IMG/VR virus record: IMGVR_UViG_2737471845_000014
Coordinates: 1 to 22,360 of that record
Strand: one strand, 5' to 3'
DNA from: a virus
Taxonomy: Duplodnaviria; Heunggongvirae; Uroviricota; Caudoviricetes
Length of the DNA stretch: 22,360 bases
Shown here in pieces: positions 3,055-20,010 of the stretch (positions are counted from its first letter, which is position 1; the number at the start of each line of letters is the position of its first letter). The position numbers and the translations under genes are program-made. The notes under the pieces are model-generated. The model saw only the letters and a list, made by a program, of their open reading frames with translations. It was not told the origin of the DNA and searched no databases.

Positions 3055-4368
3055 CTAACCCACTGATTTTAATAAGTCTCTTGTGTCACTTTGGTGACCA
3101 TGGGACATCATTGGGACATAATCTGCCAGCTTCTGATTCAGCATTGCGATCTGTTCTGCATTACTGTCAGTCATCCATGCTCCGTATACATTGAACACCA
3201 TCTGGGCACTTGCATGGCCCATCTGGCTGGCAATGAAGCTTGGGTTTGCTCCGGCAGATAATGACCAGCACGCATAAGTGTGTCGTGACTGGTATGCTTT
3301 CCGGTGCCTGATGCCCGCACGCTTAATGGCTGTTTCCCATGAGTCGCCAATAGAATCTACCTTGTAGATAAAACCGACCTGTTTGCTTTTTCTAACCACC
3401 TGGGGGTTAAATACGAAAGTACATTCATGGTTCACTGTACGTCCATATTCACGTAGTTGAACCTTGATGTGGTGCTGCTTACCCAGTCTTGTCATTTCAG
3501 CCTGATTTTTCAGGACACTGATAGCGGGCTGGATAAGATGCACAACCCTGTTTGTACTTGCTTCAGTTTTAGGTAGAGTGAACTCACCGAGTTTCGTATA
3601 ATTGCGCCTGATAGTAATTGTTCCTGCTTTCAGATCGATATCTTCCCAGGCCAGGGAGACCAGTTCACCATGACGCATTCCTGTGTACACAGCCAATGAC
3701 CACAGGTTTTTTGTCTGCTGATGCCGGCAAGCATCTATCAGGCGAATAAATTCGTCACGAGTTAGCGGATCTGGCTCTGCCCTGGCTCTTTTAAGAGGCT
3801 TAATTCCCTCGAAGGGATTTGCTTCTAAGTAACCGTGATCTGCAGCAAACTGAAACATTCCAGCGATTGTCGTCATATAATAATTTACAGTAACGACGCT
3901 CCGTCCTCTTGCTGGTGCTTTGTCTTTCGTTGAATTCTGATATCCGGTCAGCAAATCTTTCCTGATATACAGTAATTCCTCTTTGGTCACCGTTGACACC
4001 AGTCTGCTACCTCCAATTTTCGGAACCACCGTTCTTGCAACGGATTCATAGCGATTGAATGCATTTGCAGAGATTTCCATGCGTTTCAGATCCAGCCACT
4101 TTTCTTCAAGCTCTTTCACCGTAATTTCTTTTTTATTTACCCCAAAAGCCTTGAGGTTAGGAGAGTCAGGGAACTGCGCAGCGTAATCAAAGTTTCCTGT
4201 ACGAATGGCAAAACATACAGATGTCCGCAGCTCTCCGGCGATCTTCCTGTTCTTGGCAGTGTCAGGGACACCAAGATTTTCCCTGACACGTTTACCTTTA
4301 AAATTAAACCAGATGCGTAATGTGCCACCGTGGTTTTCGACGCCTGTTGGATATTTGACTTTATCCAT
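3055..4368 (-). CDS. int: Phage tyrosine integrase
   Basis: 437-aa ORF with tyrosine-recombinase C-terminal motifs (…RHTYACWSLSAGANP…, HASAQMVFNVYGAW); GGAGG Shine-Dalgarno 6 nt before the ATG at 4368; stop TAG at 3055-3057 abuts yecE. Confidence 0.92.
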   Translation of the reverse strand: MDKVKYPTGVENHGGTLRIWFNFKGKRVRENLGVPDTAKNRKIAGELRTSVCFAIRTGNFDYAAQFPDSPNLKAFGVNKKEITVKELEEKWLDLKRMEISANAFNRYESVARTVVPKIGGSRLVSTVTKEELLYIRKDLLTGYQNSTKDKAPARGRSVVTVNYYMTTIAGMFQFAADHGYLEANPFEGIKPLKRARAEPDPLTRDEFIRLIDACRHQQTKNLWSLAVYTGMRHGELVSLAWEDIDLKAGTITIRRNYTKLGEFTLPKTEASTNRVVHLIQPAISVLKNQAEMTRLGKQHHIKVQLREYGRTVNHECTFVFNPQVVRKSKQVGFIYKVDSIGDSWETAIKRAGIRHRKAYQSRHTYACWSLSAGANPSFIASQMGHASAQMVFNVYGAWMTDSNAEQIAMLNQKLADYVPMMSHGHQSDTRDLLKSVG

Positions 4369-7275: not shown

Positions 7276-7690
7276 AATGTTTGTTCCTTTGCTGGTGGAA
7301 TAATCGTGTAACCCGCTCTTTTTGCCATCCACAGAAATGTATCCATGCAACCAACGAATTCATTATCCAACAGATGTTTTGAGTAAATTACTTTCCCATT
7401 TTCAATGGTTAGCAACACTCTTACTTTTTCGTGTATTACCCCCCCTGCTCAGGCTCATTCTGCATTTTATTTCGTGCTGATGTCTCCATTATTTTATCTC
7501 CCATAAGCCTTGCGCAAATACAGGTTGGCTATATGAAGATAAGAATCTCCATGTTGTGCAATGAGGCAGGCAGTTTTATACGATGCCTTATGTTTCAGGA
7601 AAGTCATAACTGAGTTTCTCTATGAATAAAGGTTGTAACAATACCCGGCGATTAAACCGTAATATATTATTCGAAGATGACTTGTTTTAT

Positions 7691-8056
7691 TTAACTGGAT
7701 AGTTCTTTTTTAGCTGCTGCTTCAGCATAGCAACGTGCAAATTCAAGAACTTCATCACCTGTTCTTTTTATTGCGTCATTGTCTGACATTTGTAATACGA
7801 CAACTGCGCATAATAAATCATGGATATTGTTTGCAAAGGAATCCGGTGCCAGACAGAGACCCTCATAATTATTTCGTTGTAAGTTAGCTTCCGTCATTGG
7901 CTCCGAAGTGCCGGTGAGCCGGTTTTTGACAATCACGCGGTCTCGAATCACTATATCGGCAGTATCAGCTTCCCGGGCAACAGGCGGGAGGAGATGTCCG
8001 TTAATATAATCAGAGTTATCAATTTGGAGAACGGTTATGTTTTCAAACTTATTCAT
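7691..8056 (-). CDS. Hypothetical protein (121 aa)
   Basis: ATG at 8056 with GAGG upstream (MNKFENITVLQIDNSDYINGHLL…); same strand as the leftward early operon. Confidence 0.5.
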   Translation of the reverse strand: MNKFENITVLQIDNSDYINGHLLPPVAREADTADIVIRDRVIVKNRLTGTSEPMTEANLQRNNYEGLCLAPDSFANNIHDLLCAVVVLQMSDNDAIKRTGDEVLEFARCYAEAAAKKELSS

Positions 8057-8297
8057 GGCTTCCTCTGCTGACATGTATGTTCTGTTATATAGTGAGTCTC
8101 AGAAGTGTTTTCATATTGAGACTGTTTCCGCAATGGTTGAGAGAAATGTCCGTATGTATCTTGATGGCAGAAGTGGCGATTATGTCACTCTGGCTTTCGG
8201 CTCCTCAGTTGAAGAACTTCGTGAAATTCGCTCTCAGCTTATAGAAAAGCGCGGCGATGTTATTGCCCCATGGTATCTGATGAAGCCCGGGCAATAG
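8037..8297 (+). CDS. Hypothetical small protein (86 aa), uncertain
   Basis: ATG at 8037 with GGAG 7 nt upstream; its 5' end overlaps the start of the minus-strand 7691-8056 ORF and its 3' end overlaps the 8260-8928 gene, so it may be spurious. Confidence 0.3.
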   Translation: MFSNLFMASSADMYVLLYSESQKCFHIETVSAMVERNVRMYLDGRSGDYVTLAFGSSVEELREIRSQLIEKRGDVIAPWYLMKPGQ

Positions 8298-8928
8298 GCC
8301 CACCAGTTAACAGCCACATCGGATCGCAACCAAGCGCATTAGCCAGTGGAATGATCTGGCTTGCGGGGACTTCGCAGATACCGCACTCCCAGTCGTTTAT
8401 GGGGTCGTTGTAGGTGTGAATCATGCGCGCCAGGTCTGCTTCTGTCAGTCCAACTTTTTTACGTGCGGCTTCTATACGTGTGCCAATGCTTTCCTCCTGG
8501 ATGTCTGGCTGATTTACGGTAACAGCAGCAGCGCTATTTTTTTCACTCAGCAGAGAAAGAGGATCGCATCCCAGGACATTTGCCAGGGGGATTAGCATGC
8601 TGATGGTTGGTTCATACTCTCCGCTCTCCCACTGGATGATAATTTCTTCATCGAGATCGAGCAGCCTGGCGAGTTCGGCGGTTGTTAAGCCGCAGGATTC
8701 GCGTTGGGTGCGAAGACGGTTGTTGATTGCAGAATTTTTGTTCTGTAAAAGCATTGCTGACGATAGCTTTCTGGATATGCTATTTGTCATATCCCATGCC
8801 AGTCCTGCGCATGACTCGATATCGCCAGAGAGCGTAGCATCTGGCGTTGCTTTGGCTATTAGTGTAATGAGACTGCCGAGGTTTTTCAGTTCTTCAAGAC
8901 AGTCAAGAGTTGTAGCTTTATTGATCAT
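8260..8928 (-). CDS. Tandem helix-turn-helix (XRE-type) DNA-binding protein
   Basis: 222-aa ORF with two internally repeated HTH units (GLTTAELARLLDLDEE…IPLANVLGCDPLSLL and GLTEADLARMIHTYND…IPLANALGCDPMWLL); first gene leftward of the OL-like operator region. Confidence 0.7.
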   Translation of the reverse strand: MINKATTLDCLEELKNLGSLITLIAKATPDATLSGDIESCAGLAWDMTNSISRKLSSAMLLQNKNSAINNRLRTQRESCGLTTAELARLLDLDEEIIIQWESGEYEPTISMLIPLANVLGCDPLSLLSEKNSAAAVTVNQPDIQEESIGTRIEAARKKVGLTEADLARMIHTYNDPINDWECGICEVPASQIIPLANALGCDPMWLLTGGPIARASSDTMGQ

Positions 8929-8959
8929 GAGATGATACCTCAGTTACGAACTTTGTTTT

Positions 8960-9012
8960 ATGGTAACTAAGGTATCAAGGTGTGGCAAGTGATTTTTGAT
9001 ACTTTGGTTTCT
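8960..9012. promoter_or_regulatory. OL-like operator/promoter region (TGATAC half-site repeats)
   Basis: Inverted 12-mers ACTAAGGTATCA (8966-8977) and TGATACTTTGGT (8998-9009) between the CI stop and the tandem-HTH gene start; related motifs recur in the cI-cro intergenic region. Confidence 0.45.
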
Positions 9013-9031
9013 TTTTGTGTTTTGAGTCTGG

Positions 9032-9688
9032 TCAGAAAATATCCCACCTGGCATCAACTACAACACCTACTATTTCGCAATCATTGTCCATTTCTATGAT
9101 TGGATATTGTGGATTAAGGGGCTTTAGAAACGCCTTTCCCATTTCAGAAATATATTTTTTGAATGTTGCTTCATTGGTGGATTTTTTTCTGGCGATGACG
9201 TAACACCCTGAAAAAACTTCTTTATCTGGGTTGACAAGGATCGACATTCCTTCAGGAAATGTTATTCCTACGGGCGAAGTCATTGAGTCTCCGTGCACTT
9301 CCAGCCAGAACCCCCTATCACCAGCGTATTTTACAGAATGCCTCCAGTTATCCTGATCATACATGTTGTAGTCATCACCAGCAGTTGCGAATAATCCTGC
9401 CTGAACCCAGTTAATTACAGGGTAAGAGTGTGCTGTGTCTCTCTGTGGGCAGCTCTTAACATTATTTTCCCAATGCTTATCTTTTTCATCTCCGCTCTGA
9501 AGCCACTGCGGTGAACACTGCAGTGCAGCTGCGACTTTAAAAAGGGTGTCACCGTTGAAACTTTTTGTAAGGCCTTGCTCGGCTTTACTGATTGCAACTC
9601 TGGTGACCCCTGCTTTTTTAGCCAACGCATCTTGCGTTAACCCAGCTTTTTGTCGTGCGTTGATGAGGCGTTCACCTAAAGATTTCAT
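9032..9688 (-). CDS. cI: CI-like prophage repressor (HTH plus S24 LexA-like autopeptidase domain)
   Basis: ATG at 9688 with an AGGAGAAGAA RBS gives a 218-aa protein: N-terminal HTH (LINARQKAGLTQDALAKKAGVTRVAISKAEQG) and C-terminal S24 peptidase region (LEVHGDSMTSP…VVDARW); divergent from the cro-like gene. Confidence 0.9.
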   Translation of the reverse strand: MKSLGERLINARQKAGLTQDALAKKAGVTRVAISKAEQGLTKSFNGDTLFKVAAALQCSPQWLQSGDEKDKHWENNVKSCPQRDTAHSYPVINWVQAGLFATAGDDYNMYDQDNWRHSVKYAGDRGFWLEVHGDSMTSPVGITFPEGMSILVNPDKEVFSGCYVIARKKSTNEATFKKYISEMGKAFLKPLNPQYPIIEMDNDCEIVGVVVDARWDIF

Positions 9689-9704
9689 TTTTCTTCTCCT
9701 TTCA

Positions 9705-9765
9705 TGGCTGCTGATACTAAAGTAACAGAATCTCTTGATACTTTGGATTCTCGCGTTTAACATTC
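9705..9765. promoter_or_regulatory. OR-like operator region with divergent pRM/pR promoters
   Basis: Direct repeats TGATACTAAAGT (9712-9723) and TGATACTTTGGA (9736-9747) in the 111-bp space between the divergent cI and cro-like starts; same motif family as the 8960-9012 sites. Confidence 0.5.
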
Positions 9766-9799
9766 TTGGATAACAGAGTATCCGGTGTGAGACTAAAGA

Positions 9800-10027
9800 A
9801 TGACCCTTTATGAAATATTAAAAACTCAATTTAAAACCAATGCCGCTATTGGCCGCAGGTTCCCAAAGAAAGGAAAGCCTCGTGGCAGTCAAGGTGTTGG
9901 AAAGTGGAAAACGAGAGGTGTTCCAGAGGACGTAGCTATTCTCTGCCATCTGGATCCAAGTATCCCGTATATCCATCCTGATTTAGCGCACACAGAAGAG
10001 GGGCAAGGTAAGCAATCGGAGGTGTGA
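9800..10027 (+). CDS. Cro-like early regulator (putative)
   Basis: 75-aa ORF divergent from cI at the canonical cro position; only weak HTH-like pattern (…NAAIGRRF…GVGKWKTRGVPED…) and a weak RBS, so the function is by position. Confidence 0.45.
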   Translation: MTLYEILKTQFKTNAAIGRRFPKKGKPRGSQGVGKWKTRGVPEDVAILCHLDPSIPYIHPDLAHTEEGQGKQSEV

Positions 10028-10040
10028 TATGTCACAGTGC

Positions 10041-18556: not shown

Positions 18557-19435
18557 TTAAAGTAGTTTCCTATCTGCCGCCGCTCTGTGGCGTATAACCT
18601 TAGTAATACTATAGCGTGGTTTAGACAGCGCGCCATTTGTTTCTTTTGTTGTTTCTGTCAGTTCTACAACAAAAAGATCACCCTTACAGAATGCTGCTTG
18701 GTTGTGTTCAACCCGTTCAAGAAAAGCCTCATCTTTCATAGATGCGCTAACTTCTTCGCCATTTGGCAGGATGATATCCCAGCTTTTGCCTTGCTTGAAT
18801 CGAACATTAGCAAAATGTACATTAGCTTGGCGTGTCGTTACGTGCGTTTTCTCGACAAAGGTGGATTTTGCAGTTTTAAAACTTACTGCTTCAGCTTGCG
18901 TCACCCTGACTACCTTATGCTTCTGCTGTGAAACTGAGAACGTGGATGGTTTTTCAGTCTGCAGGGGTTTATAGATTAATTTATCCAGTTCTTTTCGGAT
19001 GATTGGACTGGTTATTAATTTTTGAATGTCGTTACTGCATTTAACCTTCTCACCATCCACTTCGATTTCTGCTGTATCTTTTTGTTCATCGACGACAATG
19101 GAGCTGATTTTACGCCCTTTGAGCCATTCGATTATCCCGAGTACGCCACCTGCGGCAACTCCACCACCTGCAACGAGGCCAAGGGCGTTAATAGTTTTTA
19201 TGCTCCCCATCACAGCAACAAGCAAAGTAAATGAACCTTCTTTTGTTGCCTTGATGTTGACTTTCGGCTCTGCTGTTTCGCCATTAATTATTTTTTCGGC
19301 GTGTTCAATCAGGGCACTAAGAGAGGTTAAGGCTTCGCCTAATGTTTTCGCGTCGATCTGATTATCTGCGTATGCCTCTCCACCGTAGGCAATTTCGATT
19401 TCTGTTATTGGCATGTTTTCGAGTTGCTGCGTCAT
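18557..19435 (-). CDS. Hypothetical protein with a central glycine-rich TM segment (about 292 aa), first gene of the operon
   Basis: ATG at 19435 (GGA upstream; the ORF track's GTG at 19468 is the alternative); central hydrophobic stretch (LGLVAGGGVAAGGVLGIIEWL); C-terminal ~190-aa K/E/T-rich domain; no recognisable family. Confidence 0.6.
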   Translation of the reverse strand: MTQQLENMPITEIEIAYGGEAYADNQIDAKTLGEALTSLSALIEHAEKIINGETAEPKVNIKATKEGSFTLLVAVMGSIKTINALGLVAGGGVAAGGVLGIIEWLKGRKISSIVVDEQKDTAEIEVDGEKVKCSNDIQKLITSPIIRKELDKLIYKPLQTEKPSTFSVSQQKHKVVRVTQAEAVSFKTAKSTFVEKTHVTTRQANVHFANVRFKQGKSWDIILPNGEEVSASMKDEAFLERVEHNQAAFCKGDLFVVELTETTKETNGALSKPRYSITKVIRHRAAADRKLL

Positions 19436-19555
19436 CAAAAGCATCCTTTGCGCAAGAGAAATAGCCACAGGATACAGATAATTATGAAAAAATCACTAAC
19501 GCGTACGCAAAAACTATCTTAATCTGTTAAGAGTGGTCGCTTCGCCACACAACTT

Positions 19556-19700: not shown

Positions 19701-19776
19701 GGCCCTTTAGCTCAGTGGTGAGAGCGAGCGACTCATAATCGCCAGGTCGCTGGTTCAAATCCAGCAAGGGCCGCCA
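19701..19776 (+). tRNA. tRNA with CAU anticodon (Ile2/lysidine-type or Met)
   Basis: 76 nt: acceptor GGCCCTT/AAGGGCC, anticodon loop CTCATAA, T-loop TTCAAAT, encoded CCA; resembles E. coli ileX/ileY-type tRNA from memory. Confidence 0.8.
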
Positions 19777-19777
19777 A

Positions 19778-19854
19778 CCGCCACTAGCTCATCAGGAAAG
19801 AGCGTCAACCCTTTAAGTTGAGTGTGCGAGGTTCGAGTCCCCGGTGGCGGTCCA
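19778..19854 (+). tRNA. tRNA-like gene with atypical anticodon loop (apparent UUU, C at position 33)
   Basis: 77 nt: acceptor CCGCCAC/GTGGCGG, D-arm GCTC…GAGC, anticodon stem TCAAC/GTTGA with loop CCTTTAA, T-arm CGAGG-TTCGAGT-CCCCG with one A-C mismatch, encoded CCA. Confidence 0.5.
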
Positions 19855-19856
19855 GT

Positions 19857-19932
<76 letters not shown>

Positions 19933-19935
19933 TAT

Positions 19936-20010
<75 letters not shown>

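Follow-up and report, generated by a model that had tools for sequence, protein, structure and literature searches.

What is placed at the head of the leftward early operon in a temperate phage in which N, CII and CIII cannot be recognized? The question is raised by IMG/VR virus record IMGVR_UViG_2737471845_000014, of which a stretch of 22,360 nucleotides (nt), referred to here as the window, was analysed at its full length. The element in question is the first gene leftward of the left operator, which encodes a protein of 222 amino acids (aa) with two helix-turn-helix (HTH) units in tandem, and is termed here the tandem-HTH gene. The protein consists of an acidic helical hairpin followed by two acidic HTH units, the DNA-reading positions of which carry conserved acidic residues that are under purifying selection. 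The protein may tentatively be seen as a protein-binding early modulator, i.e., a decoy or adaptor, of the lysis-lysogeny switch rather than as a reader of operators; we favour this reading with some hesitation.

Gene structure and operator region

The host genes cmoA and cmoB lie at the left end of the window, which is a piece of E. coli chromosome with a phiP27-type prophage in it. In megablast searches the region 7600-10100 shows 92.6% identity to phage phiP27 and 84-85% identity to a set of Shiga toxin (Stx) phages, Stx1a- and Stx2a-converting. E. coli chromosomes match the whole window with ~94% identity over ~75% of its length. The DNA of this allele of the gene matches 332 of 5,426 complete genomes, and one allele of the tandem-HTH family (P0044) is by itself indexed in 1,920 data blocks.

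From right to left, the order is the Cro-position gene, the right operator region (OR), the CI gene, a 103-base-pair (bp) interval with the left operator (OL) and the leftward early promoter (PL), and the tandem-HTH gene. OL and OR each have three 14-bp sites of the form GATAC-N4-GTWWC (Table 1), and the sequence TGATAC is found five times in the 196 bp of OL plus OR, compared with 0.10 expected. A leftward promoter-like site, TTGCCA-17-TACCAT at 8988-8960 (-35 at 8983-8988, -10 at 8960-8965), is interleaved with the OL sites. Thus a PL operon under CI control begins with the tandem-HTH gene, in agreement with a preliminary description of this DNA that had placed it first to the left of an OL-like operator. 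The OL/PL layout is also kept in two related loci (L016 and L018). The 5′ untranslated region (UTR) of the gene is ~25 nt, and the ribosome-binding site (RBS), GAGG at 8938-8941, is situated 9 nt 5′ of the ATG.

The product of this gene in the source record seems to have only 176 aa, with a start at Met47 (P0012), and most of the conserved hairpin is missed. In codons 1-56 the nonsynonymous substitution rate (dN) is 0.06-0.07 and the synonymous rate (dS) is 0.26-1.16. Because these codons are conserved under purifying selection, the 222-aa reading, not the 176-aa reading, is the right one.

On the opposite strand, an 86-aa open reading frame (ORF) at 8037-8297 (+) (phrog_6104, 3e-44; phiP27 L09-like) runs towards the tandem-HTH gene, with an overlap of 38 nt at the 3′ end of the latter. 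Loci L011 and L012 contain a counterpart of 75% identity, again with an overlap at the 3′ end of the homologue there, and most other loci have a same-strand gene at this place. If real, the convergent ORF would meet colliding transcription from PL.

Architecture of the protein

Pfam HTH_3 (PF01381) matches the 222-aa protein twice (E=3e-16, 59.6 bits versus a cutoff of 23). The two units, at about residues 66-130 and 146-210, align without a gap and share 43% identity over 65 aa (E=1e-17); the two internally duplicated XRE-type HTH units that had been read from this ORF are thereby borne out. A Peptidase_S24 domain is not among the Pfam matches of the protein and is present in that of the neighboring gene at 9032-9688.

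An AlphaFold2 monomer model was made from 44 family members and has a mean predicted local distance difference test score (pLDDT) of 72. Its predicted template modeling score (pTM) is low, which is expected because the modules are arranged as beads on a string. The model displays a helical hairpin (helices at residues 4-27 and 31-62), a five-helix HTH1 (69-126) and HTH2 (148-208), with the linker at 129-144 (pLDDT <50) and the C-terminal tail disordered. The N-terminal domain of the preliminary description is thus present, with a size in the model of about 62 aa rather than ~55 aa. In Foldseek comparisons, the HTH folds are nearest to the DNA-bound P22 C2 and 434 repressors (target-normalised template modeling score 0.87-0.89, root-mean-square deviation [rmsd] 1.2-1.5 Å), and the modeled units fold into five helices as do the N-terminal domains of the 434 and P22 repressors. 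Fold searches of PDB and BFVD yielded nothing beyond matches to single HTH domains and to uncharacterised viral proteins with HTH units in tandem, and gave no match to the hairpin.

Acidic residues at the DNA-reading positions

The whole protein has an isoelectric point (pI) of 4.47 and a net charge of -13. Calculated per 65-aa unit, the net charge of HTH1 is -6 and that of HTH2 is -4; by comparison, the N-terminal domain of P22 C2 has +5, the CI of this phage +6, and a DicA-like repressor from a sister locus +3. P22 C2 is the closest solved relative, both by sequence and by fold, and was used to locate the DNA-reading positions. Aligned with S31-N32-V33...S36-Q37 of P22 C2 are D93-E94-E95...I98-Q99 in HTH1 and Y173-N174-D175(-P176)...N178-D179 in HTH2. 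These residues are highly conserved: D93 and E94 are each present in 42 of 44 sequences and E95 in 37 of 44, and in HTH2, D175 is found in 27, P176 in 28 and D179 in 31 of the 32 sequences.

Across loci of six hairpin types, HTH1 shows dN of 0.01-0.07 versus dS of 0.2-1.5. For HTH2 the values are 0.03-0.12 and 0.25-1.8, with one near-identical pair left out (dN 0, dS 0.05). Thus the acidic DNA-reading positions are under purifying selection, with dN/dS of about 0.03-0.2, and a degenerate, non-functional duplication can be rejected, as all three modules of the protein are under such selection. Judged by sequence, neither HTH unit resembles a functional reader of operators, and canonical DNA reading may have been lost.

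Important is the near invariance of HTH1 across at least six immunity/operator types. The partner of HTH1 is therefore not the type-specific OL and OR operators, and should be something common to all these phages or to their hosts. A second repressor, one of the roles suggested in the preliminary description, is for this reason unlikely if it is meant to act on the TGATAC operators, and the acidity of both HTH units, with conserved Asp/Glu at the reading positions, argues in the same direction.

A modular family at the head of PL operons

The protein matches phrog_4739, a family of unknown function, over residues 1-147 (E=3e-102), and both the profile and the gene position place it in this family. 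It also matches phrog_4836 (5e-67), which is labelled “CII-like regulator”; this shows membership of the PHROG and not a CII function. Public labels of homologues are generic (“helix-turn-helix domain-containing protein”, “transcriptional regulator”, “putative CII repressor”, “DicA”), and those of tandem-HTH homologues have no experimental basis. Nearly all homologues are from E. coli, with a few from Salmonella. In the literature on phiP27, Stx phage early regions, tandem HTH proteins and antirepressors, no characterisation of the tandem-HTH protein was found.

In every related locus examined, including those of long-tailed (L-) Stx1a and Stx2a phages, the repressor gene is followed by a promoter-like site and then, ~100-146 bp away from it, by the family gene as the next gene, on the same strand as xis/int. 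The repressors encoded across these loci are S24 CI proteins of four kinds, a DicA-like protein of 126 aa and one of 130 aa, and in several locus types a clear terminator separates the repressor gene from the promoter.

At least six hairpin types, which look unrelated or only distantly related, are found ahead of the nearly invariant HTH1. The number of HTH copies in the family is one to two, the second HTH and a variable tail being optional. The hairpin type changes with the repressor/operator type: the hairpin of the window, type A, always goes with this CI and the TGATAC operators. In phiP27, an L-Stx2a phage and Salmonella, as in the window, it is found with this Cro too. Within type A, the hairpin has dN/dS of 0.06-0.2. 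The Salmonella relative (L015) keeps the type A hairpin, followed by a degenerate HTH1 and two different HTH units that are also acidic.

The type A hairpin is also found without any HTH unit. It accompanies this kind of CI also in metagenomic and Klebsiella-type phages, in which the identity of CI drops to 64-74%, and is there a free-standing protein of 67-72 aa (homologues P0125, P0127 and P0135), encoded by the first gene ~125-137 bp after cI. A phmmer search with the hairpin against 1.8 billion representatives, together with a profile search, detected only this family and free-standing hairpins, all of them unnamed. Because the hairpin stands alone at the same first-PL position in other phages, it is, by sequence, an autonomous unit that heads PL operons, to which HTH modules have been added in E. 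coli and Salmonella.

Exchange of modules is also evident within the protein. Its identity to the two-HTH proteins of Stx phages is 75-78%, and the window allele is a mosaic in which the hairpin and HTH1 are of the phiP27 type and HTH2 is of the ASU11 type (96% identity to phage ASU11). The product of the next leftward gene, at 7691-8074, has a second acidic hairpin in its C-terminal part, a paralogue of the 63-66 aa proteins encoded by the second PL genes of related loci. PL operons in this phage group (compare 4797-4997 in L002 and 4207-4613 in L016) start with two or three small acidic helical-hairpin paralogues of 63-72 aa and pI 4.4-5.1.

An early circuit without N, CII and CIII

None of the 26 early-region ORFs, from the integrase to the Q gene, matched the N, CII or CIII families when scanned against PHROGs, which agrees with the preliminary description. 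Its statement that the first leftward gene does not encode an arginine-rich N-like antiterminator also holds: 17 of the 222 residues are Lys or Arg, and residues 1-62 taken alone have a pI of 4.66 and five Lys or Arg, unlike a small, basic, arginine-rich N. Nut-like sites downstream of PL and the rightward early promoter (PR) were not supported. No exact boxA was found, the one-mismatch boxA matches are within chance (21 versus 13.9 +/- 3.8) with none in the PL 5′ UTR, and Rfam showed no RNA element near PL or PR; boxB hairpins were not modeled exhaustively. A simple scan of the left operon for minus-strand intrinsic terminators (8300-3000) detected none, and there may therefore simply be no need for N. 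The absence of N, CII and CIII from Stx phages has been noted before, in the different replication type Eru1 (PMC8044961).

The circuit also contains a CI of the S24 type, a Cro-position gene that is not lambda's, two genes of the Rha/Ant type, isrK/C4 antisense RNAs and a Q antiterminator, and the non-lambda regulatory circuit that had been suggested for this DNA is thereby supported. The isrK small RNA and C4 antisense RNA pair is present in two tandem copies, 12438-12626 and 13094-13282 (+), with Rfam scores of 58-83 bits that are all above the gathering score. The second copy is inside or 5′ of the Ash/Rha-type gene at 13040-13891, and the duplication adjoins an inserted Gp49/HTH (HigB/HigA-like) pair at 11735-12362. 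The pairs suggest an antisense-controlled antirepressor module, similar to immI of P1, as a second immunity layer.

Possible roles

If the tandem-HTH protein is a modulator of the switch, its synthesis would start with the firing of PL. Through the hairpin it would contact a partner specific to the immunity type, for which CI or Cro of the same phage is the most plausible candidate, and the invariant pseudo-repressor HTH domains, as protein-binding or DNA-mimicking modules, would engage a partner that is common to all these phages. This would tune the choice between lysis and lysogeny in a phage whose early circuit lacks N, CII and CIII. From comparison of sequences we infer protein binding, CI or Cro as the partner, and the effect on the switch; the role of an anti-immunity factor, which the preliminary description had also listed, would be plausible.

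Several points weigh against this role. Helix 1 in each HTH unit keeps three or four Arg/Lys residues, and the acidity and the recognition-helix Asp/Glu, while they argue against canonical DNA binding, may still be compatible with it. The hairpin codons start ~25-70 nt from PL, so recombination would rarely separate the two, and the association of hairpin and immunity types could be plain linkage. The phages that have the hairpin and no HTH modules indicate that hairpin and HTH may have unrelated functions. In addition, no terminator between cI and PL was found in the window or in phiP27, where related phages have a GC-rich hairpin with a T-run (L016 3864-4000, L018 3876-4000); the cI-PL interval is 103 bp in the window versus 125-137 bp in the terminator-bearing relatives. 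Read-through from the repressor maintenance promoter (PRM) could therefore make the tandem-HTH protein in lysogens, which is awkward for an antirepressor.

The main rival explanation, which we consider somewhat unlikely, is that of a genuine DNA-binding transcription factor in which the hairpin dimerises, giving four HTH units per dimer, and whose site is conserved in the phages or the host (left-arm genes, int/xis or a host promoter). The strong HTH_3 matches, the fold nearest to DNA-bound P22 C2 and 434 repressor, and the basic residues retained in helix 1 are all in line with such a factor. An invariant HTH1 would suit an invariant DNA target, and the family gene is constantly linked to a conserved left arm (Band_7, DUF5406, DUF4222, DUF1233, integrase). 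However, the net charge of the HTH units is -4 to -6 versus +3 to +6 in DNA-binding relatives, conserved Asp/Glu occupy the base-contacting positions, and the type-specific OL/OR operators are ruled out as the target by the constancy of HTH1 across operator types. A conserved site that could be the target was not identified, and the near-identical left arms left no principled way to search for one. The source labels “transcriptional regulator”, “CII-like” and “DicA” also point to a DNA-binding factor, but they are not experimental; the score against the DicA model is below its cutoff (74.4 versus 101), and there is no Phage_CII match.

An unlikely explanation is a host-takeover or anti-defence protein, whose acidic pseudo-repressor domains would mimic DNA or act as decoys for a conserved protein of the host or of a competitor (for example RNA polymerase sigma-70 region 4, a nucleoid protein, a defence-system XRE regulator or a toxin), with a hairpin unrelated to immunity. 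The first-expressed early genes of temperate phages are often counter-defence or host-modulating genes, and an acidic composition is typical of DNA mimics and antitoxins; the tandem-HTH gene has this position and its product this composition. HTH1, invariant under strong purifying selection across different switches, would fit a partner shared by all hosts, and weak profile similarity to HTH regions of capH, RmrA and antitoxins as well as the two or three small acidic hairpin paralogues at the operon start are consistent with this role. Against it, the PADLOC and NCBIfam matches are to generic HTH domains and far under the family cutoffs, no toxin or defence partner was found adjacent, and the tracking of CI type by hairpin type over large evolutionary distances would be unexplained except by linkage.

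Very improbable is a non-homologous substitute for N, in which a phage-specific N-terminal module and a conserved module on the host transcription machinery would give PL read-through to xis/int: the gene is at the N position of a long left operon that has no N, and its architecture parallels that of lambda N, which has a variable, immunity-linked N-terminus and a conserved remainder, but the protein is acidic with no arginine-rich motif, boxA and Rfam elements near PL or PR are lacking, the left operon shows no evident need for antitermination, and the 5′ UTR is only ~25 nt.

Comparison with known regulators

The modeled HTH units share the five-helix fold and the motif W-E-x-G-x-x-E-P with the N-terminal domains of P22 C2, 434 cI and DicA, and HTH2 has 34-36% identity to the P22 C2 N-terminal domain (rmsd 1.2 Å over 63 residues). 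The tandem-HTH protein differs from these repressors in having no S24 or DicA C-terminal domain, in the tandem arrangement of its units, and in its expression from PL, not PRM. Its units are negatively charged (-4 to -6 versus +3 to +6), and base-contacting residues are replaced by conserved Asp/Glu/Pro. The DicA identity (NCBIfam NF007257) is rejected, as the 74.4-bit score (cutoff 101) covers profile positions 2-67 only and the C-terminal domain is absent.

L10 of phiP27 (NP_543062) belongs to the same family, has the same position and displays an identical hairpin. L10 differs in having a single HTH in 138 aa that looks like an HTH1/HTH2 recombinant, with an HTH2-type end (...DPMWLLTG), and this fits a loss or gain of repeat units through recombination between the repeats. 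The “transcriptional regulator” of L-Stx1a and L-Stx2a phages (e.g., BCI98936) is of the same family and position as the tandem-HTH protein.

Mor, a small protein with an HTH fold, is encoded divergently from cI, at the position of Cro. The Mor antirepressors of TP901-1 and phi13 bind the CI N-terminal domain directly (PMC11149083), and are the nearest precedent in mechanism, a working analogy for a modulation of the switch by CI binding rather than by independent repression. Mor has a single domain, unlike the tandem-HTH protein, and no sequence relationship between the two is detectable. Lambda N is similarly the product of the first gene of the PL operon, with an N-terminal part that co-segregates with the immunity region. 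The tandem-HTH protein is of opposite charge and is a folded helical protein rather than a disordered arginine-rich peptide, and no sequence similarity or nut-like sites were detected. Thus an N analogue by homology is rejected, on the acidity, the absence of an arginine-rich motif and the lack of boxA and Rfam elements. Two XRE HTH units in one phage polypeptide are also found in Wmk, the male-killing protein of prophage WO, and in other tandem-XRE phage proteins; in Wmk the host, the genomic context and the N-terminal domain are all different, and the score of 33.7 bits against its model (NCBIfam NF047948, cutoff 300) shows that the protein is not a member.

Other identities were considered. 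A CII protein is rejected, as Phage_CII gives no Pfam match at E<=0.1 and the gene is left of cI instead of right of cro; the labels “CII-like” (PHROG) and “putative CII repressor” (GenBank) are thus unsupported by either. Antirepressors of the Ant/Rha/Bro type are not indicated, with no ANT, Phage_pRha or Bro-N among the Pfam matches of the 222-aa protein, and a defence-system component is not indicated by the PADLOC matches. It should be noted that no homology to a characterised antirepressor or to a second repressor of a characterised immunity type was found; such homology would have spoken against the preliminary description. Among the phage regulators and antirepressors with an XRE fold, a broad class, the tandem-HTH protein represents a variant, in a family whose members are uncharacterised.

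Other features of the window

Table 1. Positions of the tandem-HTH gene, its modules and other features in the window
Feature	Position	Strand	Notes
Integrase	3055-4368	-	
Next leftward gene	7691-8074	-	phiP27 L08-like, 127 aa; C-terminal 61 aa are a second acidic hairpin, fused to a 66-aa N-terminal extension
Tandem-HTH gene	8260-8928	-	222 aa (hairpin and two HTH); phiP27 L10 homologue; phrog_4739 and phrog_4836 matches
HTH2	8299-8493	-	residues 146-210; recognition helix Y173-N174-D175-P176-I-N178-D179
Disordered linker	8494-8547	-	residues 128-145; pLDDT
HTH1	8548-8733	-	residues 66-127; recognition helix starts D93-E94-E95
Type A acidic helical hairpin	8743-8928	-	residues 1-62; immunity-linked module; model helices, dN/dS, free-standing homologues
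OL/PL region	8929-9031	.	103 bp; three operators (8934-47, 8963-76, 8998-9011), leftward promoter-like site, RBS
CI-type repressor	9032-9688	-	218 aa; XRE HTH and Peptidase_S24
OR region	9689-9799	.	three operators (9713-26, 9737-50, 9769-82)
Cro-position gene	9800-10027	+	basic, 75 aa, pI 9.5; phrog_4749
Rha-domain gene	10813-11520		
Rha-domain gene	13040-13891		
Q-type antiterminator	17494-17907		

Between the Cro-position gene and the first Rha/Ant gene, two long ORFs overlap on opposite strands, 10041-10847 (-) and 10029-10775 (+). Neither has a match in PHROG, Pfam, NCBIfam or PADLOC, and the minus-strand ORF is annotated in phiP27 (L13). A three-gene minus-strand cassette at 17921-19468 is found between the Q gene and the tRNA/lysis region. 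It encodes a 303-aa protein that matches the PADLOC candidate defence family PDC-S42 (3e-53), and proteins of 81 aa and 128 aa that are membrane-like by sequence, none of the three having a Pfam match; the cassette probably represents a defence moron. A cluster of four tRNA genes lies at 19701-20007 (+), 5′ of the holin/endolysin/Rz genes, which is the site of tRNAs and stx in Stx phages. No stx gene is present within the window.

Shiga toxin phages and significance

Two L-Stx2a phages are 98.8% identical from the integrase to residue ~69 of the tandem-HTH protein, i.e., to the hairpin/HTH1 junction, and are then divergent through cI and cro. The hairpin lies within the divergent segment mapped between the two phages. 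L-Stx2a phages with a replaced segment (cI and three further genes; CI-4 versus CI-5) have been reported to differ in induction efficiency, Stx2 production and virulence, with the mechanism left open (preprint 10.1101/2024.03.06.583675). The start of this exchange of the immunity region coincides exactly with the hairpin/HTH1 junction of the tandem-HTH gene.

A wider proposal, which is unlikely, would be that many prophages of E. coli, Salmonella and Klebsiella, the long-tailed Stx1a and Stx2a phages among them, form a large class in which an array of small acidic helical hairpins at the head of the PL operon has replaced the N/CII/CIII layer of lambda. The first hairpin would bind the phage's own CI or Cro in a manner specific to the immunity type and, in E. 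coli, would be joined to two “dead”, DNA-mimicking repressor domains, and this decoy or adaptor would set the efficiency of induction and hence the output of Shiga toxin.

Should the tandem-HTH protein turn out to be an ordinary DNA-binding regulator, the finding would be routine. If it is instead a modulator of the switch, it would represent a repressor DNA-binding domain that has been repurposed as an acidic module that does not read DNA, and would show how the early decision is laid out in lambdoid-looking phages that have no N and no CII. Prophages with the tandem-HTH family are common in pathogenic E. coli. Some of them are Stx-converting phages, in which the production of toxin is determined by how efficiently the prophage is induced. 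A tandem-HTH protein that modulates the switch would thus be a candidate determinant of Stx2 output.

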